A stretch of 64,000 nt of DNA. It comes from Rhizophagus irregularis. Its lineage: Eukaryota. How positions within the stretch are numbered: the first letter of the stretch is position 1; every line of letters starts with the position of its first letter. The stretch spans positions 3,348,001-3,412,000 of the forward strand of contig NC_089433.1 of the NCBI RefSeq assembly GCF_026210795.1. The letters run 5' to 3'. Of this stretch, positions 20,632 to 55,720 are shown piece by piece. The translations under genes and the position numbers were made by a program. Under the pieces are notes generated by a model. The model was given only the letters and a program-made list of their open reading frames with translations. It was not told where the DNA came from and ran no database searches.

Positions 20632-20744
20632 TTTTGTGAACGTTTTTCAAAATAAAGTTAATTGTTAATAATATATCAATAATATCAATATAATTCGTTT
20701 AAAATACTTAAATTAGAATAAATTTTATTAAAATCATCAACTGC

Positions 20745-21400: not shown

Positions 21401-21446
21401 TTTTAACGTCTAATACTCTTCGCAACCAAAAAAAAATAAAAAAATA

Positions 21447-34248: not shown

Positions 34249-34769
34249 TGTAGTGCCATAATTCCAGAATTAACTTTGATTTAAATAATAGAGTATTTCG
34301 GAATTATAGGGATCATCTATATTTTGTGTAACATACATTAATAGTCTGAAGTAATTTGGATCGGAAATGAAGATCATCCTAATAGTAATAATGATGTAAT
34401 AAGTTACAATTAATTTATTATTATTTACGTTGATCGAAGGATCAACATGTAAATTATTATATAAACCCCAACTTTTTGACTTAGTATTAGCAGTTCCTTT
34501 TCTTTGGAAGTTCCTTTCTGTTTCTTTTAGTTCCTTTTAAATTCTTTTAATTCTTTTAAATAAAAACTATCATTTTAATTATTATAATTATTTTATAATG
34601 TTCTGACGAAATTTTATGATTATATTATTTTACATTTAATAAATAACTGTGTTATAATGACATATTCTTACATAATAAAGAATAAACCTTTTATTAAATT
34701 ATAAATTTTATGACTTTATGAGAGAGATGAAATTCTTGTGGCGACAGAGTGGCAGAAGCTGTCGTTGCA
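34249..34769 (+). repeat. 5' LTR of element 1
   Basis: tgtagtgcc...gtcgttgca; 7 differences from the 3' LTR counted by eye. Confidence 0.97.
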
Positions 34770-34789: not shown

Positions 34790-35897
34790 TCACCTTCTAT
34801 TGTCTACATACAATAGAAAAACTTGTTGAATAATACCTAATAAATAGCCTTTTACTATCGGCATATAGTAAATACCCTTTTGGAAGGAATGGAAATTTAT
34901 TAGAACCAAGGAGAAAACCCAAATAGTGGTCCTAGGAATTATTTGACAGTGAAAAGAAGAAAGAAGAAAAGAACTCACTCCAACCCTTTACAGAGTATTA
35001 CCCAGACTTAAATTTTTAGACATGTCTTCATACATGTATTAGCGACTAGGAATCTAAGAAACTGCGAATAAAGCGTTATATTCGACAAGGCCTCTGTATC
35101 GTATGGTTAAGTATTGTTATCTATTTTAATAATTTAGATTTTATTTTTGCAGGTATAACTCTTCAGATAGGAATGGGAATAACTGGACTCTGACGAGAGT
35201 GTAACTTCTCCTTACTGAAAGCATCCTGGAGATGCGTAACTGAACCTACAAAAATGTGTAAATAGATTGAATTATGAGTAAGTATGAGTTGGAATATGTT
35301 AAAGGGATAGAGAAATAAAGAGTTATTTCGTAAAAACCCAAATTTAATGAAGAAAGTGATAAAATCCAATTTTTAAGCCCCAAAATTGAGTAGTAAATGA
35401 AAATAAAAACCCCAATTTAAAACCCCTATATTAAACTCAGCGTTAATTAATGATTAAAGACCAATTCTAAAGCCCAAAATGATGTATTAAACCTAAAAGA
35501 ATGGTAAAACCCCATATAAAAATCCCAATTTATGAGTTGAAAACCCACTTCTAAGTACAATAAAACGTAAATAAACCCAAGTTTTAAACCCAAATTCGTA
35601 GATAAAGCCCACCTTTAAAAACCAAAGAAACTGAGATATAAAACCCACCTTTTAAGAAGAGAAAAGATGGCGGAAGCTATCTAAAAATTTTAGTAGAATA
35701 CCCGATAAAATATCCGAATTGTCTATAAAAGGAGTGCCAAAATTACCAGCCAAAAGATCATTCAAATGATTGAAGAAATACTCTTATTAACAAAAATAAT
35801 AATATCAAGATACTCATTTGCAGTATATATCATCCTTATTTGCGAGATATTAAAAATAATTTTGATAAAATTTATTATCGTTATAATTTGAGATAAA

Positions 35898-36482
35898 ATG
35901 ACTACAATTAAAAACTATCATAATCAAATTGTACTTAAGGATGAGGATAGAGATATGATTAAAGCTCAACGAAACTACCTCATCAAAATGTATGGAATGA
36001 CAATGGAGGATATAAAAATATTAGATAAGATGGCTGATAGAATTAGGGAAAGATGGTTAAAATTACAAGAAAAGCTCAAACCTTTGAATAGGATAGACCA
36101 ATTTAAAGAAAGGTGTATGGAAAATGAAATTGAAACTTATCAATCAAGTCTTGGAAAAATAGATAAAAGAGTTAGAGAATTTAATGAAGAAATATCTTAT
36201 AAAATTATACAATGCAATACCCAATTAGGATATGATGAAATCGATTTAGATAGTGATTATGAGGATAGCAAAAATGAAACCCCAACTGAATCAGAGGATG
36301 AGAAAGATAGTGACGAGGATTTAAGTGATAATGACTCTGAAAGAGAAGAGAGAGCAATGTCACCAATACCATATCCATGTTGTAATGAAATACATTGCAT
36401 ATGCTATGATCAAATTGAAATTGATAAAGAATATGAAGAATATTGTTTGAATCAGGTTGAACAAATGGCTGAAAATCATTAA
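35898..36482 (+). CDS. Accessory ORF A of element 1 (194 aa; helical, acidic tract, CCxxxHCxC motif); unknown function
   Basis: Open ATG-initiated ORF upstream of gag, with a TATA-like tataaaagg near 35724. Confidence 0.65.
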   Translation: MTTIKNYHNQIVLKDEDRDMIKAQRNYLIKMYGMTMEDIKILDKMADRIRERWLKLQEKLKPLNRIDQFKERCMENEIETYQSSLGKIDKRVREFNEEISYKIIQCNTQLGYDEIDLDSDYEDSKNETPTESEDEKDSDEDLSDNDSEREERAMSPIPYPCCNEIHCICYDQIEIDKEYEEYCLNQVEQMAENH

Positions 36483-36555
36483 AAAGCTATAAATACCTTA
36501 AAAACCCCAATCTGATAAATTAAATTATAATCCCAATTTATTAACGAATTAAATT

Positions 36556-36867
36556 ATGGATATCAAACAACAAAAAGAATTCTTAGTAAAGGCATATCAC
36601 GAATGTTTATATCAGGAAAAATCATTACGAAGGCCCATATCTTACTATAAGGACAAAATAATTGAAATTAGGAGAAAACTTAAACCAACTGAAGAAGATT
36701 TTGAGAAAGAAATAAGACTAGAAAGAGATTTAAGAAGATATGAAAGGAAAATTAGAGGAGACTACGAGACTCTAATGGACATAAAAAAGAATATAATTAA
36801 AAGGATAATTAAGATAAAAACAGAGTTAAAAACCAAAAAGAGATATCAAAATAATTTAAAAGTATAA
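36556..36867 (+). CDS. Accessory ORF B of element 1 (103 aa, basic coiled coil); unknown function
   Basis: Open ORF tightly packed between ORF A and gag. Confidence 0.55.
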   Translation: MDIKQQKEFLVKAYHECLYQEKSLRRPISYYKDKIIEIRRKLKPTEEDFEKEIRLERDLRRYERKIRGDYETLMDIKKNIIKRIIKIKTELKTKKRYQNNLKV

Positions 36868-36910
36868 ATATATCATAAAACCCAACTCTGAAAATTTTAT
36901 AAAATATAAG

Positions 36911-39607
36911 ATGTCAGATATATATGATCATTGGTTACAACATAGGACATTACATAATACACAAAAACATACTTCACGTGTAGAAAACCCAGTCTTAGAT
37001 TTCGCGTGTAGAAAATGTTATCCAATAGCAATAATACAAGAAGAGATAATAAAAGAATTTTTAAAATTCTGGGAAATTTTATGTGGAATAGAAACCCAAA
37101 TTTACGAAGATAGTTATACATCTAAAACAATAATTTCCTTTGGGGAAATAGTAGAAAGTAATAAAGATGAGATTACAAGAGAAGCAACAAATCTTATATG
37201 GTCAATTAGTTATAAAGGAAAACCCCACTATAAGTTAGATGGTTTAATTTACATTATATGGGAAATTAAACAAAACTGTTATAATTATAATGAAGAGGGA
37301 AATATTTACTTTGTAGATAATAAAACCCAACTTTACGAAACTTTACAAGAGATATGTGAACTACAAAATCATGGTTACATAATAGGTGATGGGGAATTAA
37401 ATCATAGATTTGCAGAATTTTGGAATTGGATAATTTTAGATACTACAGCATATGATTTATTCGATCAAATTGAAACATTAAAAATATTTAGAGAGATATT
37501 ATACTTAGGAGAGAAAATTAGAGTAAATAGAAATGAGATTAGAAGGTTACAAAAGAGCATAAAATTCCACAAAGAAGATACTTATTATCCCCAACCATGG
37601 AAAAATGATTATCTCACAAATGCTATAGAAACCCAATTACTAACAACTAATGGATTTAAAGGAGAAATTGTGATAGAAAACCCAAATTTGAAGGAAGAGA
37701 ATGATGAATATAACATAATAATCGAAATATTACAAGAAAGAGGAATACAAATAGGGAAGGAAGACTTGATGAGAATAATATTCACATTAGGGTATAACCC
37801 AGCACAAATATACTTAAAAGGATTCATAGAGACCTATATTGAAAATGAAGGAGAAAGTAATGACGTGTTAAAAACAATATTGGATAAATGGATAAGTGAA
37901 CACCAAATTGAGGAGTCACATGATGAATTTTCGTCTGATGAAGATGAAAATGTTATAAAAACCCCACCAAATCCCTCAAGTTCTGAAGAATCAGAAAACT
38001 CAAGTAATAATACAACAGAAAATAATAGTATACATAATACAAGAACAAATACCCCAACCTCAGGAAACTCAACTAGAAGTAATAGTCCACTACCAATAAT
38101 GGCTACCAGAGATGAAGTAAGAGAAGATATTAGAACAGTAATGAGAACTATCTTTGGAATAGATCCAGGAGCAGTCTTGAATACAGCCCCACCTAATACA
38201 ATAAATGCTACCTTAACAGGCATGTTAAATCCACTTAATAGAGCTGCAAAAATAGCAGAATTACCACTCTTTTATGGAGGGGATCAAGACGCTAATGATT
38301 GGATCAGAGATTTTAATAATGTGTATGCAGGAAACAGATATGTTGATGATCAAGCAGCAAAATTAGTGAGAGCAAAACCATGTTTAAGAGAAGAAGCAGC
38401 AGACTGGTTAGAAGGAATAGTTGCTTTAGGAAATCTAGCTGGTTTTGATAATGCAAACGATAATACTAGTTTAGCATATGAGATGAAAAGTAAATATGCC
38501 AGTCCTGTTAGACAACAACAATGGACAAGAGAATTACAATCTATCAAACAAAAAGATGGAGAGAAAGTGGGAGAATATGCGGCGAGATTTAATAAATTAT
38601 TAAAAAGAGTAGCACCAGAAGCTGGTGATTTACATGAAAGATTTAGAGTAAATTATTTTATACAAGGGTTAAATCCTATAGTCGCTGGAAGGACATTTGA
38701 AGGGAATTCTGATACTTTAGTTAATGCAATTACTAGAGCAAAAAGTATAGAAGCAGGTAATAATTTGATGTTACAAGGAATGGGAATCCCCAATTTAAAT
38801 ATAAATGAAAGCTCAACAAGTAAAACCCCAAACGTTATAGTTGATAATAATATTACAAGTGAAGTAGATAATTTAGCCAAACAGTTGGAAGAATTAAAGA
38901 TTGCTAAATTAGAAAAAGAAATATTAAGTATTAAAAATGAGATAAATAATAATAATAACACTCAAAAACCCCAATTTAGACCACCAAGACGTCAAGTGAA
39001 TAGGCCCCAATTTCAACAAAGACCACCAATGGATTGGAGCAGAGTTAACTGCTATAAGTGTGGTAAATTAGGACATACTGCCAGATTTTGTAGAGAAAAT
39101 ACTCAACAATATAATGTGATTGATATGGAAGATGATAATCAAGATTATCATTATGATGATGAAACAGGATTATACTATTACTTTGATTACGATTATCAAC
39201 AATATTTTTATCTTGACGAAGAATCCCAAAATGAGTTATATTATCAAGATAACGAATATTATCCAGCAGAAAGGACAACTAGGAGTCAAGTAAGAAACAA
39301 CCCATTGGTAGGTAATAAAACATTACCTGATAGAGATCCAATTATTAAAAGAAAACCAGTAAACAATGATATAGAGATGACTGAGAGAGTTAGAAGACCA
39401 TATGTTAGGAAAGGAGAAGGAAAATTTCAAATTAAACCTAGTAGATTCGAAACTGATGCACAAGATTATGATATAGTAAGCGATTTAGAAAATATGAAAC
39501 CCAACATTAATTTCACACAATTAGTAGCAGCAGCACCTAAATATGGTATGGAAGTCAAGAAAGCATTTCAAAGACAAAGAATACCTAGAATGCCAAATCA
39601 ACAATGA
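36911..39607 (+). CDS. gag: Gag (898 aa): long N-terminal extension, retrotransposon capsid, CCHC zinc knuckle
   Basis: LPLFYGG..DANDW, IKQKDGEKVGEYAARF, FIQGL, CYKCGKLGHTARFC. Confidence 0.93.
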   Translation: MSDIYDHWLQHRTLHNTQKHTSRVENPVLDFACRKCYPIAIIQEEIIKEFLKFWEILCGIETQIYEDSYTSKTIISFGEIVESNKDEITREATNLIWSISYKGKPHYKLDGLIYIIWEIKQNCYNYNEEGNIYFVDNKTQLYETLQEICELQNHGYIIGDGELNHRFAEFWNWIILDTTAYDLFDQIETLKIFREILYLGEKIRVNRNEIRRLQKSIKFHKEDTYYPQPWKNDYLTNAIETQLLTTNGFKGEIVIENPNLKEENDEYNIIIEILQERGIQIGKEDLMRIIFTLGYNPAQIYLKGFIETYIENEGESNDVLKTILDKWISEHQIEESHDEFSSDEDENVIKTPPNPSSSEESENSSNNTTENNSIHNTRTNTPTSGNSTRSNSPLPIMATRDEVREDIRTVMRTIFGIDPGAVLNTAPPNTINATLTGMLNPLNRAAKIAELPLFYGGDQDANDWIRDFNNVYAGNRYVDDQAAKLVRAKPCLREEAADWLEGIVALGNLAGFDNANDNTSLAYEMKSKYASPVRQQQWTRELQSIKQKDGEKVGEYAARFNKLLKRVAPEAGDLHERFRVNYFIQGLNPIVAGRTFEGNSDTLVNAITRAKSIEAGNNLMLQGMGIPNLNINESSTSKTPNVIVDNNITSEVDNLAKQLEELKIAKLEKEILSIKNEINNNNNTQKPQFRPPRRQVNRPQFQQRPPMDWSRVNCYKCGKLGHTARFCRENTQQYNVIDMEDDNQDYHYDDETGLYYYFDYDYQQYFYLDEESQNELYYQDNEYYPAERTTRSQVRNNPLVGNKTLPDRDPIIKRKPVNNDIEMTERVRRPYVRKGEGKFQIKPSRFETDAQDYDIVSDLENMKPNINFTQLVAAAPKYGMEVKKAFQRQRIPRMPNQQ

Positions 39608-40186
39608 CTACACTCGGACGAAAAAGAATTAAGATATTATGATGAAAATAAAGAAGTAACAATAGCTATGAAAACCCCAATTTTTATAAATGGAATTGAA
39701 ATTAAAGCCATAGTAGATACTGGAGCAGCCACATGTGCTATATCAAAAGGATTATTAATAGAGACAGGAAATGAAATTGAAAGATCAAGTAATGTAAGAT
39801 GTATAATGGCAAATGGATCTAAAACAGCATCATTAGGTAAATCAACCTTAGAAATTGAAATTGATGAAATAATAACAGAAATTGAAGTTGAAGTAATTAA
39901 TTCACAAGATAGAATGTTAATAATTGGCAATGATTTTATGAGTGATTGGAAAGCTAATATAGACTTTAAAACCCACACCTTAACATTAAATGATCAAGGA
40001 CATGAAATATACATACCAATTGAATATATCAAAAGTAATAGAGTTAAATTTGAAACCCCAATTCAGGATGAATACACTGATGATGAAGAAGACCCCACAT
40101 ACGAAGATAATGAAGAAATTGAAACTTTTAGAGTTGAAGATTTAGAAGAAGAGTATATCAGCGAAGATGAAGAAGAAGTAAAATAA
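39608..40186 (+). CDS. Retropepsin aspartic protease, in frame with gag behind a TGA
   Basis: AIVDTGA and IIGNDF motifs; 20 open codons between the gag stop and the ATG at 39668. Confidence 0.92.
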   Translation, partial: LHSDEKELRYYDENKEVTIAMKTPIFINGIEIKAIVDTGAATCAISKGLLIETGNEIERSSNVRCIMANGSKTASLGKSTLEIEIDEIITEIEVEVINSQDRMLIIGNDFMSDWKANIDFKTHTLTLNDQGHEIYIPIEYIKSNRVKFETPIQDEYTDDEEDPTYEDNEEIETFRVEDLEEEYISEDEEEVK

Positions 40187-41645
40187 TGAGTCTTGGCCCA
40201 GAAAAGGGAGAGACAGAAAAGATGCTAGAAAAGTTAAAATTACGAAATTTAAATAAAAACCAAGAGAAAATAACAAAAGAACTAGTAATAGAATATATGG
40301 ATATTATGGAATATGATAAGGAAAAACCCAATTTAGTACCAAATGTTAAACATCGTATAATAATAAATGAAGGCAAACCCCAATTTTACAAAAAGGTTAT
40401 AGAGAAACTTTGGAAAAAAAGAAATTCATAAAGAAAGAAATAGAGAAAATGTTGAGAGTAGGAAGGATTAGACCGTCATATAGTCCTTGGGCGTCCCCAG
40501 TAACATTAGCTAATAAGAAAAGTGGTACCTATAGATTTTGTATTGATTATAGAGCGCTTAACAAAGTTACTAAAACAGATGCATATCCTTTACCAAGAAT
40601 TGATGAATTACTAGAACGATACGAAACATCAAAATGGTTTACAAGTATGGATTTAGCAGCAGGATTCCATCAAGTAGAAATGGACGAAGAAGATAAAGAA
40701 AAAACAGCTTTTGTGTGTTCATTAGGATTATTTGAATTTAATGTTATGCCATTTGGACTTAAAAATGCCCCAGCTACCTTCCAAAGGTTAATGAATAATG
40801 TTTTATACGATTTTATTGGAGATTTTGTTGAAGTTTACATTGATGACATAATGATACACTCTAAAAATTTTGAAGATCATATTATACATGTGACTAAAGT
40901 ATTACAGAAATTAAGAGAACATAATTTGGTCGTAAAGTTAAAGAAGAGTAGATTCTGTGAACAACAAATTGAATTTTTAGGTCATGAAATTGGTAAAGAT
41001 GGTATAAAACCCAATTCTAAGAAAGTAGAAACAATTAGTAAAATAAAAGAATCCCAAACTTTAACAGAATTATGATCATTCTTAGGATTATGTTCATATT
41101 ATAGGAGATTTATTAAAGATTTCTCCAAGAGAGCTAAACTACTATATAAATTATTAGAAAAAGATGTTCCATATGAATGGATGGATGAACAACAAGATAC
41201 CTTCGAATGGTTAAAACAATGTCTAACTGAAAGCCCAATTTTGTCACACCCAAATTTTGAAAAAGAATTTATTTTGATAACAGATGCATCAGCAGATGGA
41301 TTAGGCGCTATATTGGCTCAGAAAAATGATAAAGATAAGGAAGTTGTGATAGCATATGCCAGCAGAAGCACCAATAAAACCGAAAGAAATTATCCTATAA
41401 CAGATTTAGAATGCTTGGCAATAGTATATGGAGTTGAATATTTCCATAAATTTTTGATAAATAAAAGATTTAAGATAATCACAGATCATGCAGCCCTTAA
41501 AAGCTTAGTAAATGAAAAGATTCCAAAAGGAAGGCGTGCAAGATGGATAATGAAATTACAACAATATGATTTCTTTGTAGAACATAGACCAGGAAAGAAA
41601 AATGGGAATGCTGACGCACTTTCAAGATTAAAATATAAACAATAA
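40186..41645 (+). pseudogene. pol: Reverse transcriptase-RNase H with one frameshift (~40390) and one premature TGA (41073)
   Basis: SPWASP, RFCIDYR, YPLPRID, MPFGLKNAPATFQ, YIDD, TDAS, VIAYASR, ITDH, NADALSR. Confidence 0.93.
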
Positions 41646-42078
41646 TTAAGATTAATTAATTTAGTGTAATGCACAAATTAAAAGCCCAAATCTTGTTGAA
41701 CATTTAAGGAAATAAAATTAGTGATGAAACACTCCTTGGCGTAAAAGATTTTAGAATTTTTAGATGGAAAATCAGAAACAATCAAAACCCAAATCTTAAT
41801 ATTATTCTGATAATATAAACAAATTATCATGAGGAGGATTTGTTTATTTAAAGATGTAAACAATAATTTAAAAGATACGCCAAGATCATCTAAAGATGCA
41901 CCAGTAAAATTGATGATGATCATTCAACTGTGGAAATAAAATTATTATAAAAAGACACCATTCAAGATGGTAAAATGAGATTATACAAATCATAGTTTTA
42001 ATAATAAACTAATAATTTTTTTTCCAAGAAACCAAAAACTCAAAATCTAAATCAAAAATTTAAAAACCCAAATTCAAG

Positions 42079-43824
42079 ATGAACTCAACAGTTGAACAAC
42101 TTAAGGAAGTTCTTAACATGCCCAATCCTCAGAATTTTAGGATTAAGACCGACTTAGGTCAAAGATGTAAAAGGTGTACAGGAAGATGTCAAAACAACCA
42201 TTATAGCCTGGATAGAGAGTATGGAGAACTAAAAGTTGTGATAAGCAATATGCTAAAGCATAAAGAGCCCATGGAATGCTTTAAACATTCAACAGTAACC
42301 TATCATCCACCACATAATTGTAATAAAGCTAAATGTGAAAGATGTGGATCTTGGGGACATAGTAAGGAGGTATGCAATGATAAGTTATACTATTGGAATA
42401 GGTTGTGCCTATGCAAATGTGATGGAAGGAGATGTAAAAGACGAAGATCAGAAACCCAATTTAAAGGAGGCAATCATTGTTGCACCTGCCAGAAACCTGT
42501 AATATTCTATGAGGCATACAGTAATTATAAAATAGGAAAATTAAGATGCAATGAATGTCATGAGAATAGCGTTAATAACAAAAGACCACCTACACCAGAT
42601 ACTGACGAAGGTAACAAAAAGCCCAAATTTAATATACCAGAACCTGAAGATCCAATGCAAGATATGGAGTTAAACCCACCAAGGATCCAAAATAAAGGAA
42701 AAGAGAAACAAAAATATACTGAAATCAAATGTACGAATTGTAACAGAAAGGAAAGCCCCATTAATTGTATCAATAATTTAGGTATTTGTGACAAATGTGA
42801 TGAGAAAAGAGAATGATTGGAACGAACAGGAAGTACCTCCTGTATAAAGACTTGTACAGTTTGCCGACTACAAACTGATAACTTTGAGTCAAGATCATCA
42901 GGAGCTATAGTATGTGGAGAGGAATGTAATGGAGTGTTAACTATTATGAATATGGTTAACAAGGATAAATCAGGAAAACCCCAATCCCAATTAATTTAAG
43001 AGAAATTACAAATTTGGATAGATAAACTTGGATATGATCCAGAAGATGAAGATGATATGAGCGAAGAACAGGATAAAATCAATAAAATGTCAGGAAAAAT
43101 TCAAAAATACCTTAAGAAAGAATTCAAAGAAAGGATATTTTCTGAATATCCAAAAGAAAGGATTGAAGAAGCTTTAGATGTTATAGTACCACCAGAGATA
43201 ACAAATATGATATCTGAACATATAGAGAATAAAGAATTAACTCAAGTGATACCTATTAGAACCATTAATGATACTATTGAATGGACCGAAGAGATCAGAC
43301 AACCATGGGAATTGAATGGAGAATTCATATGGCCAGAAGAAGAATTATTAGAAAACCCCATTCCTATAATGAATATAATTCAAGAAGTAAATCCCACCGA
43401 TAACAGAATAATTGAACTTCAAAACCATATTGTGAAACTAGAAAATGAAATTGCAATAAAGGACCAAATGAATGAAGGATTAAGGAATCAATTAGAGGAA
43501 ACCCAATATCAACTTAACGAAACAGCGAGAATGTGCAATGAAAATGCAAATATGGTGATGAACGCTCAAGAGTGGATGAAATATTTCAAAAATAAATATG
43601 ACAGAAGGAATAAATGGGTAAATGAATTAAAAAAGAAAGGTAATATTTTGTTAACAAAATATGTCAACAAAAATAATGATTTGAAAGAGAGGATAGAGGA
43701 ATTAGAGCAAGAAATAAATTTTGGAAACGTGTTATTTAATCAGATAATAGATCTTAATATGACAATTAGTTCAGACATAGATATAGATCCTTCTATGGAA
43801 AACATGGAACTCTTAAGATATTAA
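42079..43824 (+). pseudogene. Accessory Cys-rich multi-zinc-finger / coiled-coil protein (~580 codons, two premature stops)
   Basis: ORFs 42079-42816, 42817-42999 and 43057-43824 share one frame, split by TGA and TAA. CERCGSWGHSKEVC knuckle plus many CxxC pairs; C-terminal coiled coil. Confidence 0.75.
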
Positions 43825-44263
43825 TTGAAATTTTTATAAATAAAGCCCAATTTTTATAAACCCAAACTCAAATTTTCAAAATGAAACAAAAATATGTAAA
43901 AATAAAAGATGAATAGCATTTTATTTCGTATACTAAAAACCCAAATTTTGAGTTCAAATATTTTACAGATAATGAAGCGATGTTACTCAAGTTAGGAGAA
44001 AGGACCAAAGAAATTTTATTAAAACGAAATAATAGAAAAACCCAACCCATTTTAATAATAATTGATGGAGTAGATGGCGTAGGAAAAACTACTATAGTAG
44101 AAAATATAATTAGAAAAATTGAAGCCCAGAATCTTAAAATCATTTTTAACACTTTCAAAAGAAGGAGAGGTGATAATAAATTATTTGAGACCCCAACCAT
44201 CAAATATGAATGGATGTTTCGAAAAGAAGTAGTTGAACAAATTAACAAGAGATTAGTAACATA

Positions 44264-46332
44264 CACAGGCAATCTCGATAAATCGGATCAGTTGGTTCCA
44301 GTAAAAATATCCGATATATCAAGACATCCGATATATCGAAAAAATCTCGCCAAACCGGATTTATATAAAAATATATGAAAAATCCGAAATACCAAGAAAT
44401 CACGTGATTTTTCGTTCAAAATTTTCAAAATTTTATTCAAAAATGAATATAATTTTATTATTATAAAAGAACTATCTGTCATACATTAAAATCAAAATAT
44501 TCATTTAGTTTACTTTGCCTTTTTTCATTTATATTATCAAAAAAGATCCTTTTTTTCAATTTAATTAAATTTTTCATTTCTAAATTACCAATTTCTAAAT
44601 CTTTTTGTTGAATATATTTAATTACATTTTCAATGCTATTTAACGCAACTATTGTAGAGATTTCATCTTGCTCCTCTTCCTCTTCAATTTCCCTTTCATT
44701 TGTTCCCTTTACAACGTCAACAATTTCTTGTAATGATAATTCCTCTTCAGCAGATGCTCTATTATCAATATTAATATAGTCATTCACAGCTAAAGGATCT
44801 ACGAATCCTAACTCATCAATTAATGATTGTAATTCATGTCCAATATTATCTTCTTCATAATCGGAATTGTCTGAACATTCAGAATCTTCCATATTATTAT
44901 TGGGAAGGATTCCAGCTTTAGCCCAACTGTTAAGAATTGTTTTTTTAGATACTTTTTTCCAGGCATCAGCAATTAAATTGATTGAATCAAAAATATCAAT
45001 TGGGGGTGGAATGGGGTCTCCCTCTTCATAAAAAACATAAGCTTGAATACGATTTTGACATAGCAATTTGCGATATTGTGCTTTTAAACTATAAATAATG
45101 CCTTGATCTAATGGTTGAAGAAATGATGTTGTATTTGGTGGTAAAAAATGAACCTTAACATTTGAAAGACTATTGATGTTCTCAGATTCATGACATCTAG
45201 CATTATCTATTAGTAAAATAATATGCCGATTTTCTCTAAGCATTTTGGAATTTAATCTTTCAAGATAATGTTTGAAAATACTTCTTTGCATCCAAGCTTT
45301 AGAGTTCCAATAATACCAAACAGGGAGAGATCTTTTTTCAATTCCCTTTAATGCACGTGGTGTTTCATATTTATGAATAAAAACTAAAGGCAATCTTTCA
45401 TCACCAGAAGCATTACAAGTTGCCAAAATACTAACACGTTCTTTAGGACGTTTTTTACCAAGTACAGGATCATGTGCTATTGTTTTGGATGGTTCTAAAC
45501 GCCAAAAAAGAGCAGTTTCATCACAGTTCCAGATATCTTTTAGTTCATATGCTTGAAGAATTTCTCGTAATTCAGCTCTCATTTGTGGAAGTTCATCAAT
45601 AGGAGCACTGCCAGCTTCTCCTTTTTTTTTATATGTATGCAAATTATTTCTCTGTTTAAAGTTGCTTAACCATCCTGCAGATGCTGAAAAGTTGGTGATA
45701 TCAAGTAAGTTAGCACACTCTACTGCTTTTTGTTGGATAATAGGCCCATTTATAGTTAAATTTCTTGAAATTTGTTGATCAACCCAAATGCTTATTACTT
45801 CTTCTAGTTGTGGATAAACACTAGATTTTTCACGAAAATTATTTGCATTTGGTAAAGTGGTATCAATGGAAAGCCAATGTTCTGATCTTTTTAAAATATC
45901 AGAAACTGTGCTAGTGGAAATTCCATATTGTGCTGCTAATTGAACACCACTAAGTTTTTGATCTCTTTGTTTTTTGCAGAGTTCTTTCTTTTGAGCTAAT
46001 GTTAAAGATTTCTTCTTTTTATTATTCGTATCTTTGTTTTCTCTCATGCTAAAGTATATTTTGAAAAAAAAAACAGTGAGAAAAATTGTTTGCCTAATTA
46101 ATAAATGATTGACATAATTATTTCGGACTCCAAAAAAATTAATACGACATATCAAGATTTTTTAACTATAGTTGATCTAGAATAAAATCCGATTTACGAA
46201 ATATCGAGATTTTACTAATAAAGTCCGATATATCAAGACTGTTTTAATATAGATGATTTGGTTCCAGAAGAAAAATCCGAAATAGTGCCAAATCCGGTTT
46301 ATCGAGGATCCGATTTATCGAGATTGCCTGTG
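44264..46332 (-). mobile_element. pogo/Tigger-like Tc1-mariner superfamily DNA transposon (2069 bp)
   Basis: Perfect 26-bp TIR cacaggcaatctcgataaatcggatc; TA TSD at 44262-44263 and 46333-46334. Confidence 0.96.
44479..46047 (-). CDS. pogo-type transposase (CENP-B-like HTH domains + DDE_1), intact ORF
   Basis: LTLAQKKELC..YGISTSTVSDILK, FSASAGWLSNFKQR, WNCDETAL, LLIDNARCH, FLPPNTTSFLQPLDQGII; first ATG at 46047. Confidence 0.95.
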   Translation of the reverse strand: MRENKDTNNKKKKSLTLAQKKELCKKQRDQKLSGVQLAAQYGISTSTVSDILKRSEHWLSIDTTLPNANNFREKSSVYPQLEEVISIWVDQQISRNLTINGPIIQQKAVECANLLDITNFSASAGWLSNFKQRNNLHTYKKKGEAGSAPIDELPQMRAELREILQAYELKDIWNCDETALFWRLEPSKTIAHDPVLGKKRPKERVSILATCNASGDERLPLVFIHKYETPRALKGIEKRSLPVWYYWNSKAWMQRSIFKHYLERLNSKMLRENRHIILLIDNARCHESENINSLSNVKVHFLPPNTTSFLQPLDQGIIYSLKAQYRKLLCQNRIQAYVFYEEGDPIPPPIDIFDSINLIADAWKKVSKKTILNSWAKAGILPNNNMEDSECSDNSDYEEDNIGHELQSLIDELGFVDPLAVNDYINIDNRASAEEELSLQEIVDVVKGTNEREIEEEEEQDEISTIVALNSIENVIKYIQQKDLEIGNLEMKNLIKLKKRIFFDNINEKRQSKLNEYFDFNV

Positions 46333-46735
46333 TATACTGATGAAGATATAATTATAGTAGATAAATCCCCATACTGCGAATATTTTTATCAAAAGACAAG
46401 TAGTTTTGATAGAGGAATAATAAGACCTTTTGGAAATTTTAAAATGGAACAAGAAATTTTCAAATACAAAAATATAATTGATAATGCAGCAGTTATATTT
46501 TTAGAAAATAACGCATGTTGGAAAAATTACATAGGAAGAGAAACTAAAAAGAGTAATGGAGGATATAAAGCATCATATAATACACTCAAAGAAAACGAAT
46601 ATATGGAAATGGTTAAGATGTTCAAACAAAATCAAACAATATATGACAACAAAAAGAAATATAAAGCAGTAAAAATCCAGAACGATAACAAAAGTTGGAA
46701 AATTGTCTATAATGAAATTTTAAAAATAATAAAAA

Positions 46736-47893
46736 ATGGAAACTGACGAATATAATAAAATTGTTAAAAATATTCATGAAAACCCCAAATTTGAATTAAA
46801 AGAAGCCCAACTCTATAGAATAAAAGAAGATAAATTACTTAAAGTAATACAAAAACATGAAGTTGAAGGACTATTATATATGATGCACGATCATGAATTA
46901 TCAGCACATTTTGGAATAAAAGCAATACAAGATAAAATACGAGGAAAATATTGGTGGAATAAAATGATGAAAGATATAGAAAATTATGTTAAATCATGCG
47001 ATAGATGTCAAAGAAGAAATAAACCCCAAGGGAAGAATGAATTAAGCCCAATTAGCGTTAAAACCCCATTTTATCAGATAGGAATTGATTTTGTAGGACC
47101 ATTACCTGCTACTAAAAAGAGAAATCGATATATAATTGTAGCAATGGATTACTTTACTAAATGGCCAGAAGCAAGAGCGACTAAAAGAGATACAGCTGAA
47201 GAAGTAGTTAAATTTCTTTATGAGGATATTATATGTAGACATGGTTGTCCACGAAAAATAATTAGTGATAGAGGCAAACATTTTGACAATAAGATGGTAG
47301 AATTATTAACTAAAAAGTTTGAAATAAAACATAATTTATCAACAAGTTATCATCCCCAAACTAATGGATTAGTAGAAAGATTTAATAAGACGTTATGCGA
47401 ATCATTAGCTAAATTGCAAGAAGATAAACAATGGGACGATAAAATACCATCAGTATTATTTGCATATAGAAATAAAACCCACTCTTCTACAAAAACCAAA
47501 CCATTTTATTTAGTATATGGACGAAAAGCTAATTTCATTGAAGAAGAAACCCAAACCACAGAGAGACTAAATGAGATTATAGAAGGACTACCTTTTCAAA
47601 GAAATATAGCAAAAGAAGAAATTTTAAGATCTCAGGTAAAACAGAAAGAATATCATGATAGCAGAAGTAAAAGGAAAGAAGAATTTAAAATAGGAGACGA
47701 AGTATTAAGATATAACGCAGCACAGCAAAATTCTAAATCAAATAAATTAGACGATAAATGGTCAGGACTATACTTAATACATGAAATATTATTAAATGGA
47801 TCTTATAAATTAAAAGAGTTAGATGGAAAAATATTGAGAAACCCTACGAATGGAGAATTATTGAAGAGATATTTCACGAGAGAACTTAGATAA
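46736..47893 (+). CDS. Integrase (HHCC, DDE core, GPY/F-like C-terminus) as a separate ORF
   Basis: HD..AHFG..CDRCQ, IGIDFVGP, MDYFTKW, IISDRG, YHPQTNGLVERFN; ATG overlaps the end of the kinase ORF; no chromodomain. Confidence 0.95.
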   Translation: METDEYNKIVKNIHENPKFELKEAQLYRIKEDKLLKVIQKHEVEGLLYMMHDHELSAHFGIKAIQDKIRGKYWWNKMMKDIENYVKSCDRCQRRNKPQGKNELSPISVKTPFYQIGIDFVGPLPATKKRNRYIIVAMDYFTKWPEARATKRDTAEEVVKFLYEDIICRHGCPRKIISDRGKHFDNKMVELLTKKFEIKHNLSTSYHPQTNGLVERFNKTLCESLAKLQEDKQWDDKIPSVLFAYRNKTHSSTKTKPFYLVYGRKANFIEEETQTTERLNEIIEGLPFQRNIAKEEILRSQVKQKEYHDSRSKRKEEFKIGDEVLRYNAAQQNSKSNKLDDKWSGLYLIHEILLNGSYKLKELDGKILRNPTNGELLKRYFTRELR

Positions 47894-47997
47894 ATATCTT
47901 AATTAATTTACAAAATAAAAAGTAAAAGCACAATTGTTAAAGTAAAATATAAAATTTTATTGAAATTTTAAAAATCCCAAGAAGAAAAAGAAGAGAA

Positions 47998-48699
47998 TTA
48001 TAATAGTTTCTTTAAAGCGAGGTTTTCTTCTGAAAAAAAAAAAAAAAAAAAAAAAAAAATTTATTATTAAATGATAATTTTTAGGAATTTAATCTTAAAT
48101 ATTAAAAATAAGATAATATACCTTTGAGACTGAGAAGCAGCCGACCAAGATTTCGATTAAAAGAACGAAGCTCTGAAATGGTATCTTTGAAATTATCTTG
48201 CTCTTGTTCAAGAGCATTAACCTTTTCCTCCATTTCCTCAATTTGATCTTGTAACTTCCAACCGGAAGTCAAATAATGAACATTCTTTTCAAAGAGAGAT
48301 TCGTTTCGCTCCTTCATTTTATCCAATTTGCGTTGGAGAGATTCTGTTTGTTCTGTTAGAAGGAAAGAAAAAAGAGAAGAAGAAATTCATACCATTATTA
48401 GTTAAAAAACTAAGTGAATAAAGTCGATAGTACAAAGGAGTTCTACAGGAGAGTGCATTCAAGACTAGCCCTAGAAGTATAGAAACCCCGTCTACAGGTC
48501 AAAAGATCAACCATTCAAGAACCGGAACTTAAGTTTAAAAACCCCGTCTACAGTTAAACCCCATTCAAGAGACATCCTAAGGACCTTGCGTATGATACCC
48601 ACCCTTAAGTCGAGCTATTTCAGTTTTGCGAGAAGCCTTGAGAGCTTTATAACGAAGTTGAGATTTCTTATTTGAAGAAACTGAGCGGCGAGAAGTCAT
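47998..48699 (-). CDS. Predicted three-exon antisense bZIP-like / coiled-coil protein (~120 aa) inside element 1
   Basis: Exons 48699-48603, 48352(or 48343)-48122 and 48029-47998, with two phase-1 GT-AG introns giving one continuous ORF; TATA-like box near 48792-48798; aataaa near 47956-47961. Confidence 0.7.
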
Positions 48700-49177
48700 G
48701 ACGAAAGATTATATATATTTTAAAGGGTAAAGGAAAATGTTTTATAACAATGAATGAATGAGGAAAGAAAAGAAAAGGAAAAAGTGAGGTCTTATATAGA
48801 GAAAAAGACGCGACTTGAAGAATGCGTTAAAATTAAACAAAACAAACTTATCACGAAAAGATTTGATGAAAACCCCACGTGGAAATTTATAGAAAAAGAA
48901 ATTTATTTTTAGAACAAAGAACTATACGTTAATTAATTTAAGGAGTTAAAAACAAATTAATTTGGTGAAACATTGATGTCGCGATTTGTTAAAATTAGAG
49001 ATTTATTTTTAGTAATACACGGAAAATTAAGGGGTAGAATAACGGATTGGAGTTAGTATGAAATAAATGTCGCGATTTACTAAAATTAGTAGAAGGAATA
49101 ATTAATTAATAGGACGCGTTTTATTTTGATCCTGTAATACAGATTTTAATTTGGAAATTTATGAGGACACAAATTTT

Positions 49178-49191
49178 AAGGGGGAGGAAAG
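49178..49191 (+). promoter_or_regulatory. Polypurine tract of element 1
   Basis: aagggggaggaaag, 2 nt before the 3' LTR. Confidence 0.9.
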
Positions 49192-49193
49192 TT

Positions 49194-49714
49194 TGTAGTG
49201 CCATAATTCCAGAATTAACTTTGATTTAAATAATAGAGTATTTCGGAATTATAGGGATCGTCTATATTTTGTGTAACATATATTAATAGTCCGAAGTAAT
49301 TTGGATCGGAAATGAAGATCATCCTAATAGTAATAATGATGTAATAAGTTACAATTAATTTATTATTATTTACGTTGATCGAAGGATCAACATGTAAATT
49401 ATTATATAAACCCCAACTTTTTGACTTAGTATTAGCAGTTCCTTTTCTTTGGAAGTTCCTTTCCGTTTCTTTTAGTTCCTTTTAAATTCTTTTAATTCTT
49501 TTAAATAAAAACTATCATTTTAATTATTATAATTATTTTATAATGTTCTGACGAAATTTTATGATTATATTATTTTACATTTAATAAATAACTGTGTTAT
49601 AATGACATATTTTTACATAATAAAGAATAAACCTTTTATTAAATTATAAATTTTATGACTTTATGAGAGAGACGAAATTCTTGTGGTGACAGAGTGGCAG
49701 AAGCTGTCGTTGCA
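49194..49714 (+). repeat. 3' LTR of element 1
   Basis: 521-bp near-identical copy of 34249-34769. Confidence 0.97.
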
Positions 49715-50636
49715 ATATGATTGATATTTTAACTGTTCGTTCTTGATATTTATGTGTTATGCTTGATATTTGGTCCGTTTGTAAAAACATCAGGCATGAA
49801 CAGATAAAACATCAAGCACAAACAGCTAAAATATCAAGCATGTGATAGATAAGCATCAAGCATGATGGATAGATGAAAATATCAAGTATATGACAGATGA
49901 ATATCAAGCATGCATGAACAAATAAAATATCAAGCATGGACAGATGAACATCAAACTTAAAACAGGTAAAATGTCAGGCACAGTGTAACAATTTGTCAAT
50001 CCATGCTTGATTTTTCATGGCTGATAGTTTAGTCCAACTCGGCTAACCATATTAAATTGCATAATACTTCTGCGTCATTTTTGGTCAGTTACACTTAAAA
50101 TAAAAAAAATGAAAATTATATGTAATTTTATAATTGTAAAAAAACATTAATTATAATTTTATTCAAATTTTTTTATCACTTTTTAAAACTTTTGATAAAA
50201 TACAAATGAATATTATTTTTATAAAAATTAATTGAATATAATAAAATTAATTAAACAACTTTATAAAATCCTGATGTACAGTTGTACACACTGATTATAA
50301 ATTGGATAAATAACATTTTCATTAATGAAATTAATCGTCACAACAGTGTTACGCCAATGATGATTGATGTACAACAATATTTAATTGTTGCACAATGCAA
50401 ATCAGATAGGGACTTGTAGCGCTACACCAATGGCACAGAGATAGTTATTTGTTAAACAATGTATGAAACGCAGTTTTCAAATCAATTAAAAAGATAAGGA
50501 ACTTTAATGTTGACGTTCCGAAATTTTCATTTTTGTAAACATTGAAAAATTTTAAAATAGTATAAACCATATTTTTGTGACTATGATATGTGAAAGATGT
50601 GGAAAGTATTTACATTTTGAATGGTGTAAATCATGC

Positions 50637-51814: not shown

Positions 51815-53041
51815 TTAATCGAATCGAACTCGGGTCTTATCGAATACCTCTTTTCCTTTAATTACTATTTTTGGTATAAATCCCCTTCGATCATAAAATT
51901 TCTTTAACCATTCTCCATTTTGTGGTGTTTTTAGTATTCTTCCGTCTAATTCTTTGAGTTTATACGCTCCATTTCCAAATTCTTCGTGAATTAAATATGG
52001 TCCTTTCCATTTGTTCTGCAATTTTCCCGACCATTGTTTCTCTCTCCATGCTTCATATAATAATACTTTTTCTCCTATTTCAAATTTAGGTTTTCTAATT
52101 CCCCTTTTGTCGTGTTGTTGTTTTTGTTTCTCTTGAGCTTCTTTCACATTTTCTTTTATTTTCCTTCTTATTACCGGTAGTTCTTCAATTAATATTTTTA
52201 CTCTGTCAGCTAATGTTATTTTATTTTCGTCTTTATCCAATGGTAGTTTTGCTCTCCTTCCGTATGTCGCATAAAAAGGTTTAATCTTTGTTGATGATTG
52301 CTTCTTTGTTCTATATGCAAATAATACAGATGGTATATGTTTATCCCAATTTTCTTCTCCTAATTTGGCTAATCCTTCGCATAAAGTTTTATTGAATCTT
52401 TCGACCAAACCATTTGTTTGTGGCCTATATGGTGTACTTAATCTATGATTTATTCCACACCTTTCTACCAATTCTTCCATCATTCTATTGTTAAAGTGAG
52501 TCCCTCTATCACTAATTATTTTCTTTGGACACCCATGTCTACAAATTATATCCCTCCAAATAAATTCTACTACCTCTTTCGCTGTAGCTTCTTTTAGTGG
52601 TGCGGCCTCGGGCCATTTTGTAAAATAATCCATTGCTACTACAATATACTTATTTCCCTTTTCTGTCTCTTTTAATGGTCCAACTATATCTATTCCAATC
52701 ATCTCGAATGGTTCATTTATCTTTATCGGCATTAATTCGTTCTTTCCTCTTGGTTTTCCTCTCATTTGACAATTCCAACACGTTTTTACATATTCTTCTA
52801 CATCTTCTTTCATATTTTTCCACCAATAATTTTCTTTTATTCTATCTAATGTCGCTTCTACTCCAAAATGTCCTGATAATTCGTTATCATGCATCATGTA
52901 CATCAATCCTTCGTATTCATAATCCCTGATTACTCTAAATTTGTTTTGTCCTTTTACTCTATATAGAATTCCTTCTTTCAATTCATATTTATTCTCCTTT
53001 TCGATATTGTCAATTATTCTCTTGTAATTATTTTCTTCCAT
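51815..53041 (-). CDS. Integrase (408 aa) as a separate ORF
   Basis: HD..GHFG..CWNCQ, IGIDIVGP, IISDRGTHF, PQTNGLVERFN, WKGPY; an in-frame TAA lies four codons upstream of the ATG. Confidence 0.95.
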   Translation of the reverse strand: MEENNYKRIIDNIEKENKYELKEGILYRVKGQNKFRVIRDYEYEGLMYMMHDNELSGHFGVEATLDRIKENYWWKNMKEDVEEYVKTCWNCQMRGKPRGKNELMPIKINEPFEMIGIDIVGPLKETEKGNKYIVVAMDYFTKWPEAAPLKEATAKEVVEFIWRDIICRHGCPKKIISDRGTHFNNRMMEELVERCGINHRLSTPYRPQTNGLVERFNKTLCEGLAKLGEENWDKHIPSVLFAYRTKKQSSTKIKPFYATYGRRAKLPLDKDENKITLADRVKILIEELPVIRRKIKENVKEAQEKQKQQHDKRGIRKPKFEIGEKVLLYEAWREKQWSGKLQNKWKGPYLIHEEFGNGAYKLKELDGRILKTPQNGEWLKKFYDRRGFIPKIVIKGKEVFDKTRVRFD

Positions 53042-53090
53042 AATACCTCTTTAATTGATTTCGCTTCTAAATTTGTTATGTTCTGTATTT

Positions 53091-55172
53091 TTAGTTCTGT
53101 GCTCTTCTCCATTTCTCCACCTCTTTAAATACTTTTCTCCAACTACTATTGTCATTTTTAACTTTTACTCGACTGTATCTTTTAGTATCTTTGTACACGC
53201 CCTGATTTTCTTCAAACATTCTAACCATGTCCAAATATTCATCCTTCTTTAATGTTGGATATGATGATTTTTCCGTTTTCTTTGTTTCTCTTCCAATGTA
53301 ATTTTTCCAACATACGTCGCCATCTTTTTCTAAAAATATCACTATTGATTTATCTATTGTTTCTTTCAATCTGAATATTTCTTTTTCCATCTCATGATTT
53401 CCATGTGGAGTAATTAATCCTCTGTCAAAGCTTTTCGTCTTTTGATAATAATATTCACAATATGGTGATTTGTCTAAAATTATTATATCTGTATCTTCGT
53501 CATATTCTAACATTCTCCTGTTTATTTGTTCTACTACTTCTTTTCTAAATTTCCATTCTGTCTCCATTTTTGATTCATAAAATTCATCTTTGTCTTTTCT
53601 TCTTCTTTTATAAGTATTGAATCTTACTTTTAATCCTTGTTTTTCCCATTCTTTAATTAAATTTTGTACTATACTTGTTTTTCCTAATCCATCTACTCCA
53701 TCGATTATTACTATTTCTGGTTGGTCTTCTACTATCTTTAATAACCTACTTAACGCGTCAGCGTTCGTGTTTTCTTTTCCTGATCTATGTATTACTTCAA
53801 AATTATATTGTTGTAATTCCATTACCCATCTTGCTCTTTTTCCTTTCGGTATCTTTGCATTCATTAATCCTTTTAATGCACTGTGATCTGTTATTACTTT
53901 AAATTTTCTATCGATCAAATACTTATGAAAATGTTGAATTCCCCAAACTATTCCTAAACATTCCAATTCGGTTATCGGATAATTTTCTTCTGCTGGTAAT
54001 AAACTTCTACTTGCGTATGCTATTACTACTTCTTTTCCCTTTTCATCTTTTTGACTTAATACTGCACCTAATCCTTTTCCTGATGCATCTGTTATTAATA
54101 AAAATTCTTTCTTCCAATCTGGATGTCGCAATATTGGATATTGTATTAACTTTTCTTTCAATTTTTCAAACGCTTCTTGTTGTTCTCTTCCCCAAATGAA
54201 AGGTATCCCCTTCTTTCTCAAATCACTTATTGGTCTTGCTATCTTTGAAAAATTCTTTACAAATTTTCTGTAATATGAACAAAGTCCTAAAAATGATCTT
54301 ACTTCTTTCACTGTTGTTGGTGCCTTCATTTCTTTTATCTTTTCTATCTTTTTATCGTCTGGCCTTAATCCATCATTTCCTACTATATGTCCTAAAAATT
54401 CTATATTTCTTTCCAAAAATCTACATTTCTTTAATTTTATTATCAAATTATTCTCCCGTAACTTCTTTAATACTTTTTCCACATGTTCCATATGATCTTT
54501 TAAACTTTCCGAATATATCATAATATCATCGATATATACTACCACAAAATCGTTTATGTATTCTTCCAATATTTCATCCATTAATCTTTGAAATGTTGCT
54601 GGTGCATTCGTTAAACCGAACGGCATTACATTATACTCAAATAATCCTTTCGAATATACAAATGCTGTCTTTTCTTTGTCTTCTTCTTTCATTTCTACTT
54701 GATTAAATCCTGCCGCTAGATCTATACTTGAAAACCATTTTGCTTTTCTATATTTGTCCAATAATTCATCCATTCTTGGTAAAGGAAAACTATCCATTAT
54801 AGTTATCTTATTTAACTTCCTGTAATCAATGCAAAATCTATATTTTCCTGTTTTCTTTCCTGCTAATGTAACAGGTGAACTCCATGGACTTTTTGATTTC
54901 CTTATCCTTCCCTGTCTTAACAATTTATCTACTTCTTCGCTTATAAATTTTGCCTTTTCATCTGTTTCTTTATATCTTCTTTGCTTTATTGGTTCTACCC
55001 CATCTTTTATTTTTATCTCATGCTGCGCTGCTTTTGTTCTTCCTTCTATTTCCTCATCGTATTCCAAAATATCTTGGTATTCTAATAGTAATTTTACCAT
55101 ATTTTCCCAAATTGGTTCTTCTACCTCCCCTATACTTAGTTTTTGCATAAATTTTTCACTTGGTTCGAGCAT
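53091..55172 (-). CDS. pol: RT-RNase H fused to a C-terminal thymidylate/deoxynucleoside-kinase-like domain (693 aa)
   Basis: YIDD, TDAS, ITDH, NADALSR, followed directly by IVIIDGVDGLGKTS and IIILDKSPYCEYYYQ. Confidence 0.95.
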   Translation of the reverse strand: MLEPSEKFMQKLSIGEVEEPIWENMVKLLLEYQDILEYDEEIEGRTKAAQHEIKIKDGVEPIKQRRYKETDEKAKFISEEVDKLLRQGRIRKSKSPWSSPVTLAGKKTGKYRFCIDYRKLNKITIMDSFPLPRMDELLDKYRKAKWFSSIDLAAGFNQVEMKEEDKEKTAFVYSKGLFEYNVMPFGLTNAPATFQRLMDEILEEYINDFVVVYIDDIMIYSESLKDHMEHVEKVLKKLRENNLIIKLKKCRFLERNIEFLGHIVGNDGLRPDDKKIEKIKEMKAPTTVKEVRSFLGLCSYYRKFVKNFSKIARPISDLRKKGIPFIWGREQQEAFEKLKEKLIQYPILRHPDWKKEFLLITDASGKGLGAVLSQKDEKGKEVVIAYASRSLLPAEENYPITELECLGIVWGIQHFHKYLIDRKFKVITDHSALKGLMNAKIPKGKRARWVMELQQYNFEVIHRSGKENTNADALSRLLKIVEDQPEIVIIDGVDGLGKTSIVQNLIKEWEKQGLKVRFNTYKRRRKDKDEFYESKMETEWKFRKEVVEQINRRMLEYDEDTDIIILDKSPYCEYYYQKTKSFDRGLITPHGNHEMEKEIFRLKETIDKSIVIFLEKDGDVCWKNYIGRETKKTEKSSYPTLKKDEYLDMVRMFEENQGVYKDTKRYSRVKVKNDNSSWRKVFKEVEKWRRAQN

Positions 55173-55207
55173 CTTTTCCGTCTCTCTCTCTTCAGAGCCA
55201 AGACTCT

Positions 55208-55720
55208 CTATTTAAAATTCTGGTGCATTTTGAATACCTCTCCTTCATCATTGCTTTCATATTCTTCATCGTCCTCACTCTCCTCACTTTCATATGCTAC
55301 TTCTCTTTCATATCCTACTGGAATCGTTATTATTTCTCCCTGTTCTTCTATTCTTAAGGTATGATCTTCAAAATTTATTTTTGCATTATACAACTTCCAT
55401 ATGTCATTTCCCAAAATTAGATCCTCCTCTTCTGAATCGATTACTTCAACTTCTTTCAGTATTTCTAATTCATCTTTGTACCTCAAAGTTATATTCGCCT
55501 TTCCTAACGCTGCTATCTTTTGCCCATTTGCTATTGTACATCTAAATTTACTTTTTCCAAATATAGGTATATTCAATCTTCTTCTTAATTTATCTGTTAT
55601 CACGCTTACTGCTGCTCCAGTATCTATTATTACATTCACTAATTGATCTTCAACTTCTAATTCTGTTCTCATTGCTGTAGTTCTCTTTTCTTCGTTTTTC
55701 ATAGTTCCCACCGAGTGTAG
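55208..55720 (-). CDS. Retropepsin aspartic protease, in frame with gag behind a TGA
   Basis: VIIDTGA and LILGND motifs; open frame starts immediately after the gag stop. Confidence 0.92.
   Translation of the reverse strand, partial: LHSVGTMKNEEKRTTAMRTELEVEDQLVNVIIDTGAAVSVITDKLRRRLNIPIFGKSKFRCTIANGQKIAALGKANITLRYKDELEILKEVEVIDSEEEDLILGNDIWKLYNAKINFEDHTLRIEEQGEIITIPVGYEREVAYESEESEDDEEYESNDEGEVFKMHQNFK

Follow-up and report, generated by a model that had tools for sequence, protein, structure and literature searches.

A spliced antisense gene between integrase and the 3′ LTR of a Ty3/Gypsy element in Rhizophagus irregularis encodes a predicted coiled-coil protein with a basic head

We analysed a 64,000-nt stretch of AT-rich fungal DNA from Rhizophagus irregularis (referred to here as the window) and found that a Ty3/Gypsy retrotransposon in it, which we call element A, carries an accessory gene of its own on the strand opposite to gag-pol. 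The gene is spliced and polyadenylated, its protein product is an orphan, and it belongs to a known class of antisense accessory genes of LTR retrotransposons. It occupies positions 48699-47998 of the minus strand, between the stop codon of the integrase and the polypurine tract (PPT) and 3′ LTR of element A, and we regard its existence as practically certain. The initial annotation had proposed such a gene at this place and described it as bZIP-like and arranged like HBZ of HTLV-1. The exons, introns and placement that it claimed were borne out, whereas the bZIP identity was not, and HBZ serves as an analogy only.

Element A is 15.5 kb long and lies on the plus strand between two LTRs of the TG...CA type (34249-34769 and 49194-49714), which are identical at 519 of 526 aligned bases (98.7%) and are flanked by the target site duplication ATAT (34245-34248 and 49715-49718). 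A PBS-like TGG stretch at 34772 directly follows the 5′ LTR, and the PPT lies at 49178-49191. Pfam places gag, protease, reverse transcriptase (RT) and RNase H at 36860-41645, and the integrase ORF, in which rve and Integrase_H2C2 score above the cut-off, runs from 46733 to 47893 with its stop codon at 47891-47893. The RT region is broken by a frameshift and a stop codon. Further, an intact-looking DNA transposon of the pogo/Tc5 DDE_1 type (44261-46335, minus strand; CENP-B and DDE_1 domains; perfect terminal inverted repeats of 29 nt), which is separate from the antisense gene, is nested in element A and divides its thymidylate-kinase-like domain. Because of these lesions, this copy of element A is probably not autonomous, yet it is young.

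The coding part of exon 1 begins with the ATG at 48699 and extends to 48603, encoding residues 1-32, a basic head, plus one base. It is followed by intron 1 (48602-48353; 250 nt, GT-AG, phase 1, GTGGGT to a polypyrimidine tract and CTAACAG), exon 2 (48352-48122; residues 33-109, the body of the coiled coil), intron 2 (48121-48030; 92 nt, GT-AG, phase 1, GTATAT to T27 and CAG) and the coding part of exon 3 (48029-47998; residues 110-119 and the stop codon). The pyrimidine tract of intron 2 is the A-run at 48033-48059 of the plus strand. Joining 48699-48603, 48352-48122 and 48029-47998 yields a protein of 119 amino acids. Exon 2 is 100% identical to the R. irregularis gene model GLOIN_2v1849105 (P0001), public gene models of other copies (P0005, P0019 and P0023) match the 119-residue length and the exon structure, and the exon-3 peptide ends 11 of 35 stored proteins, all of which are predictions and not independent proof. 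The TATA-like box (TATATAA, 48798-48792) and the AATAAA (47956-47961, minus strand), a candidate polyadenylation signal, are both present as the initial annotation had stated, but they are poor support for the gene, as five TATA-like hexamers occur in 47880-49200.

The removal of intron 1 is directly seen in RNA. The joint 48352/48603, which reads CT..AC on the plus strand and hence GT-AG on the minus strand, was found in 4 of the 13 window-matched reads of polyA run X20 (with two starts), in 1 of 9 reads of polyA run X21, and in one of three contigs of X4 and one of four contigs of X10, which come from two further studies and which we took as RNA by guess only. Intron 1 is thus spliced out in five raw polyA reads and two contigs across three studies, and both contigs match the window copy with 0 mismatches. 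The joint was seen in none of four reads of polyA run X19, none of eight reads of X22 and none of nine contigs of X2, which is probably DNA and carries the unspliced form. The joint of intron 2 is hidden by the A-run in our table of read joints; one X4 contig, however, reaches 48122 and continues into a loose end of 14 nt that equals 48016-48029 of the window, and therefore 48030-48121 has been removed from it. In X19 and X20, single reads that stem from another copy fall within intron 2, so retention of the intron, or sense RNA, also occurs. An alternative donor at 48584, used in three gene models, was in no read. Mates were found in both directions at the same places and the libraries look unstranded, so the strand was taken from the GT-AG orientation. 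RNA depth over the gene was at most 3.4 (about a quarter of each polyA run).

We also observed an abundant X10 contig (depth 59 vs 9.5 for the spliced gene) which, together with four X21 reads, shares 47940-48021 with the window and, to the left of 47940, runs on into sequence absent from the window. Its source would be another locus or a rearranged copy.

RNA coverage stops near 48,890, and depth is zero at 48,911-49,300 in all three polyA runs (X19, X20 and X21), whose overall depth is low. The antisense transcript thus appears, weakly, to start inside element A, upstream of the TATA-like box at 48798-48792, rather than in the 3′ LTR. Together with the end of coverage, the composition of 48700-49193 marks this segment as a candidate internal promoter and 5′ UTR on the minus strand. 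Its observed/expected CpG ratio is 2.0 vs 0.33 in gag, and it holds 4 of the 20 CGCG sites of the window (0.15 expected), being the sole 494-nt stretch with at least three. All four are of the form WCGCGW (48808, 48979, 49070 and 49114, the last being ACGCGT); a TCACGAAA site lies at 48851 and a second TATA-like site at 48891-48886 (minus strand). ACGCGT/CGCG and TCACGAAA are described as the MCB and SBF sites found in G1/S genes (PMC4862756). The pattern of CGCG and SCB sites was noticed post hoc, and a literature search found no work on E2F/SBF with CGCG in early-diverging fungi.

Intron 1 contains three repeats of the form TCTTGAATG-N6..13-CTGTAGA, at 48442-48464, 48491-48520 and 48547-48570, which occur nowhere else in the window and which are candidate protein-binding sites. 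Separately, we note that three pieces of the intron (48405-48449, 48470-48534 and 48546-48610) recur with different flanks in contigs of X1, X2, X4 and X10, which suggests a conserved motif common to other loci or element families. A structured RNA in intron 1 was considered and rejected, as, for either strand, 198-199 of 200 shuffles fold better than the intron itself; Rfam had no match in 47800-49800.

AlphaFold models the 119-residue protein as one helix spanning residues 3-118 (mean pLDDT 93; alignment of nine sequences), with a pTM of 0.45 that, for a single-helix model, is uninformative on the oligomeric state. Residues 1-32 carry a net charge of +10. From residue 31 to residue 115, all 13 heptad d positions are hydrophobic, nine of them Leu, a count of 13 that none of 200,000 shuffles reached, and these 13 unbroken heptads run in register across the two phase-1 introns. 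Asn is found at four a positions (49, 56, 98 and 112). Leu or Met at d together with Asn at a is the pattern of two-stranded parallel zippers. On this basis, we predict that the protein pairs into a long, parallel, two-stranded coiled coil, probably as a homodimer, with a basic tip.

We next turn to the likeness to bZIP factors of the fungal Yap type that the initial annotation had pointed out. In bZIP proteins, a hinge of nine residues connects an N-x7-R/K motif with the first Leu of the zipper, and the whole domain measures 60-80 amino acids (PMC8778692). The antisense protein resembles bZIPs of the Yap/AP-1 type in that a basic stretch with N-x7-K lies immediately upstream of a zipper with Leu at d and Asn at a in one continuous helix, and N10-x7-K18 is unchanged in all 14 stored copies; the motif N-x7-R/K, however, also turns up in 34% of the sequences obtained by shuffling residues 2-26. 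The zipper, moreover, is 13 heptads long, and the hinge of the observed product has 12 residues rather than 9, which puts the basic motif three residues out of bZIP register, such that S13 and K21 stand at positions -18 and -10 from the first zipper Leu (L31). A nine-residue hinge is absent from the observed 48352 form and from the model with donor 48584 and occurs only in a form spliced to the second in-frame acceptor at 48343, which has the pattern N-x7-K-x9-I-x6-L-x6-M. This acceptor exists in the DNA as claimed, but it is used by none of the seven observed joints and none of ten joined gene models, and its upstream tract is weaker (6 pyrimidines in 15 nt vs 13 for 48352). A search with Pfam models yielded only sub-threshold matches of exon 2, confined to the zipper part, to bZIP_1 (17.6 bits, cut-off 27.6) and bZIP_2 (15.1 bits, cut-off 22.3), while dozens of unrelated coiled-coil families reach equal or higher scores. 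No bZIP family was among the nine families listed for residues 1-59 or among the best 25 matches for full-length models. With the register of the 48352 form off, the Pfam scores below the gathering score and the motif frequent in shuffles, we did not file the protein as a bZIP: judged by its sequence, it shares the outline of a bZIP without being one. A basic tip on a zipper dimer may still work like a bZIP in outline.

Close relatives of the antisense protein number in the dozens and come without exception from R. irregularis or from short soil-metagenome fragments. The protein cluster has 25 members, copies of the gene are 86-100% alike, and several loci per isolate carry it (RhiirA4_486234, RhiirA4_453614 and RhiirA4_479423; RhiirC2_741044 and RhiirC2_753755). 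One relative, P0009, is 89% identical in exon 2 and continues into the antisense of the integrase end, its residues 66-103 matching 47802-47689 of the window at 94.7%; thus, at least one sibling that has diverged by 11% has the same layout. The head is the best conserved part of the protein: 4 positions of residues 1-32, and only 2 of residues 8-32, vary among 14 stored copies, and 25 of the 65 positions of residues 45-109 vary among 18 distinct cores.

The exons and layout of the gene are kept in siblings, and in record 8 of X2 (48216-48874, 659 nt) the splice sites are unchanged, with all five substitutions and both indels falling in intron 1. Intron 1 makes up 38% of this record, which by hand gives 0.38^7, or about 0.001, but the changes are clustered. 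In record 4 of X1, 9 of 16 exon-2 substitutions are synonymous vs 20-32% expected (P 0.001-0.035), with a dN/dS of about 0.19-0.36 in this exon; the same contig, on the other hand, has a 1-nt and a 2-nt deletion there. Purifying selection on the gene is thus likely, not firm, given small numbers and the close similarity of the copies.

Homology searches found no homologue in other Glomeromycota, or anywhere outside R. irregularis and soil metagenomes. A search of 1.84 billion protein representatives returned four matches, namely three close copies and P0014, a repetitive coiled coil (E 8e-4) that we discarded as compositional. Longer fused forms of the protein were found in none of 331 candidates. 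The ESM Atlas contained generic coiled-coil neighbours only, among which bZIP clusters took ranks 7 and 15 with a score of 0.86 that is below the threshold for a lead, and a sequence search of the PDB gave nine weak coiled-coil matches, no bZIP among them. In JGI metagenomes, 225 pattern matches yielded, upon protein alignment, 0 confirmed loci of the gene, and the sole locus obtained there by DNA pattern (L001) matched by chance, as the DNA around it looks bacterial and has nothing in common with the window; in viral contigs, 73 pattern matches yielded 0 confirmed loci. A weak tblastn match at 22051-22251 (E 2.6) falls in a DNA-transposon region and was discarded. This large DNA-transposon-like region (17473-23508) has a minus-strand transposase-like frame with a stop and a divergent plus-strand gene containing introns. 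Elsewhere in the window we noted two protein-kinase-like genes in opposite orientation (2091-5532, minus strand; 11971-15627, plus strand), with arrays of repeats, each ~520-570 nt long, upstream.

The window contains a second Gypsy element, element B, at about 61555-50639 of the minus strand, the RT and integrase of which are 68% and 57% identical to those of element A. In element B, fewer than 100 nt lie between the integrase and the LTR, and we saw no sign of the antisense gene there, which indicates that the gene is dispensable for the wider lineage.

Comparison of the two elements revealed several further features. The gag end of both consists of the identical 13 nt TGACTACACTCGG (39605-39617, plus strand; 55723-55711, minus strand), in frame with the protease, despite gag proteins that share no more than about 32% identity. 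As stop codons in the context UGA-CUA are known to be read through, pol of both elements is probably made by programmed stop-codon readthrough. In both, the protease frame stops and RT starts in another frame at the same place (40150-40215, plus strand; 55170-55235, minus strand), and the integrase is encoded apart, in an ORF that opens with an ATG of its own (46715-46765, plus strand; 53030-53110, minus strand); the split of pol appears to be conserved and not a product of decay. A P-loop domain of the thymidylate-kinase-like type lies between the RNase H and the integrase of both elements (element A, 43917-44378 and 46222-46746, plus strand; element B, about 53091-53720, minus strand); it is 56-60% identical between them and matches PF02223 below the cut-off, and we found no report in the literature of a thymidylate kinase in fungal LTR elements. 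Element A has additional sense ORFs that are absent from element B and have no Pfam match above the cut-off: a Cys/His-rich frame of 250 amino acids and a coiled-coil frame of 274 amino acids that lie after RNase H and before the kinase-like domain (42064-43824, plus strand), and a pair of ORFs ahead of gag (35892-36867, plus strand).

The gene lies antisense to gag-pol, between pol and the 3′ LTR and inside an intact LTR pair, and is transcribed antisense as a unit of its own, from what would be its own promoter. ORFs of this kind, antisense and placed between pol and 3′ LTR (aORF-3R), are known from maize Grande (gene23), rice RIRE2, Silene Retand (TRP28) and PvRetro13 (ORF2), where many copies of a family have them (PMC7264820, PMC11963269). 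Of these, Grande GENE23 has been studied best; the protein is found in the nucleus and the gene is driven by a promoter of its own, a regulatory function has been proposed for aORF-3R proteins, and the parallel with HTLV has been drawn before (PMC7264820). The R. irregularis gene shares with this class its place and orientation, antisense transcription (in Grande from an internal promoter) and the lack of a host homologue, and differs from it in the two spliceosomal introns seen in RNA, in the 119-residue protein with a basic head and coiled coil, and in its host, a Glomeromycotan fungus. No TRP28 or SMC domain scored above the Pfam cut-off in the protein. The gene brtn of Boty (BcGypsy1) from Botrytis cinerea and Sclerotinia likewise lies antisense between pol and the 3′ LTR of a fungal Ty3/Gypsy element (PMC7264820, PMC8365987); homology searches with the antisense protein found no Botrytis or other ascomycete protein.

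HBZ of HTLV-1 and APH-2/3/4 are also antisense, spliced and polyadenylated genes at the 3′ end of a retroelement that encode a zipper-like helix. Transcription of HBZ is driven by the 3′ LTR, and the protein begins with an activation domain and ends with a bZIP (PMC10186651). The position and splicing of the HBZ-like arrangement that had been suggested for element A hold, but the domain order does not, and the promoter in the 3′ LTR probably does not either: given the zero depth at 48911-49300, the transcript seems to begin some 300 nt inward of the LTR edge, the protein carries its basic part at the N-terminus, and it has neither an activation domain nor detectable homology to HBZ. We found no published description of the gene, and antisense genes are absent from the main texts of three papers on transposons of AM fungi (PMC8647823, PMC11075540, PMC11952901), the supplements or repeat libraries of which may list the family.

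Our leading interpretation, to which we give an even chance, is that the protein is a putative dimeric, nuclear, nucleic-acid-binding regulator of its own Gypsy family that acts in trans. The gene would be transcribed from the candidate internal promoter in 48700-49193, the 119-residue product would homodimerise through its coiled coil, and its basic head would enter the nucleus and bind nucleic acid, by which the protein would regulate the expression of its family; acting in trans, it could still be supplied by a copy with a broken pol. The genomic RNA, being the opposite strand, lacks usable splice sites at the antisense introns, and this is why such introns survive retrotransposition. Most speculatively, the targets could be the three TCTTGAATG...CTGTAGA repeats of intron 1 or the LTR, and expression could be tied to G1/S through the CGCG/SCB sites. 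We count in favour of a regulator the several loci in the RhiirA4 and RhiirC2 isolates, splicing in three studies, the layout of P0009, the signs of selection, the single helix of the AlphaFold model and the precedent of nuclear Grande GENE23 with its own promoter; we count against it the low expression, the thin numbers behind those signs of selection, the lack of a homologue in other Glomeromycota and the existence of element B without the gene.

A bolder version of this regulator, which we hold to be doubtful, is an HBZ-like switch that evolved independently. By this analogy, a spliced antisense basic-zipper protein made from an SBF/MBF-type (CGCG, SCB) cell-cycle promoter, a candidate binder of the intron-1 repeats or sequesterer of host zipper factors, would time or damp the transposition, in multinucleate AM hyphae, of a family which has a thymidylate-kinase-like domain as well.

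It is rather unlikely that the protein acts as a decoy in the manner of HBZ, which targets CREB-2/Jun (PMC10186651), its coiled coil pairing with host bZIP or other zipper factors and its out-of-register head blocking DNA binding, which would damp the LTR or a host stress response. The zipper-type a/d pattern, the sub-threshold matches to the zipper halves of bZIP_1 and bZIP_2, the displaced basic region and the HBZ precedent fit such a decoy. Thirteen heptads, however, go far beyond what a bZIP zipper needs within a domain of 60-80 amino acids (PMC8778692), unrelated coiled-coil families match equally well or better, and the conservation of the head suggests a positive role.

A structural role, in which the coiled coil serves as a rod in the virus-like particle or pre-integration complex, or in which the protein exports or imports RNA or cDNA in the manner of Rev or CERV with the head binding RNA, is unlikely as well. 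A long rod with a basic tip would suit a tether, such functions have been proposed for aORFs (PMC7264820), and accessory proteins of retroelements perform them, as does CERV of Cer1, a spliced accessory protein that is encoded on the sense strand (PMC10309623). A separate antisense unit, in contrast, uncouples expression from gag-pol, and element B manages without the gene.

We consider it very unlikely that the protein is an atypical true bZIP whose Yap-like basic region, either in a minor 48343 isoform or in the main form with its unusual spacing, contacts a palindrome. The full pattern obtained with the 48343 acceptor speaks for it, as do the N, Q, aromatic and basic residues of the head, which sit at the places that they have in the Yap-type basic motif; further, our listing of joints needed at least three reads, so rarer isoforms would escape it. 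The disuse of 48343 in reads and gene models, its weaker tract, the Pfam result for residues 1-59, the frequency of N-x7-R/K in shuffled heads and the absence of a bZIP from the nine PDB matches all argue the other way. Least probable of all is an effect of the RNA (double-stranded RNA or transcriptional interference) or a captured passenger with an incidental protein, for low expression, an orphan protein, the second context of 47940-48021 in the X10 contig and X21 reads and the antisense RNA roles discussed in PMC7264820 are met by a perfect 13-heptad register across two phase-1 introns, an excess of synonymous and intronic changes, a transcript that barely overlaps sense coding sequence and searches that found no host orthologue.

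A retrotransposon-borne bZIP factor is not what the gene establishes. Its bearing is on what antisense accessory genes do for LTR retrotransposons, a question for which a search for antisense and spliced transcripts has been called for (PMC7264820). The gene adds an intact, expressed case with two spliced introns from a mycorrhizal fungus whose transposons are actively studied; its protein is small and easy to make, and it comes with candidate cis sites. For R. irregularis itself, it means that some genes annotated as hypothetical proteins (GLOIN_2v1849105, RirG_141080 and others) are retrotransposon cargo.
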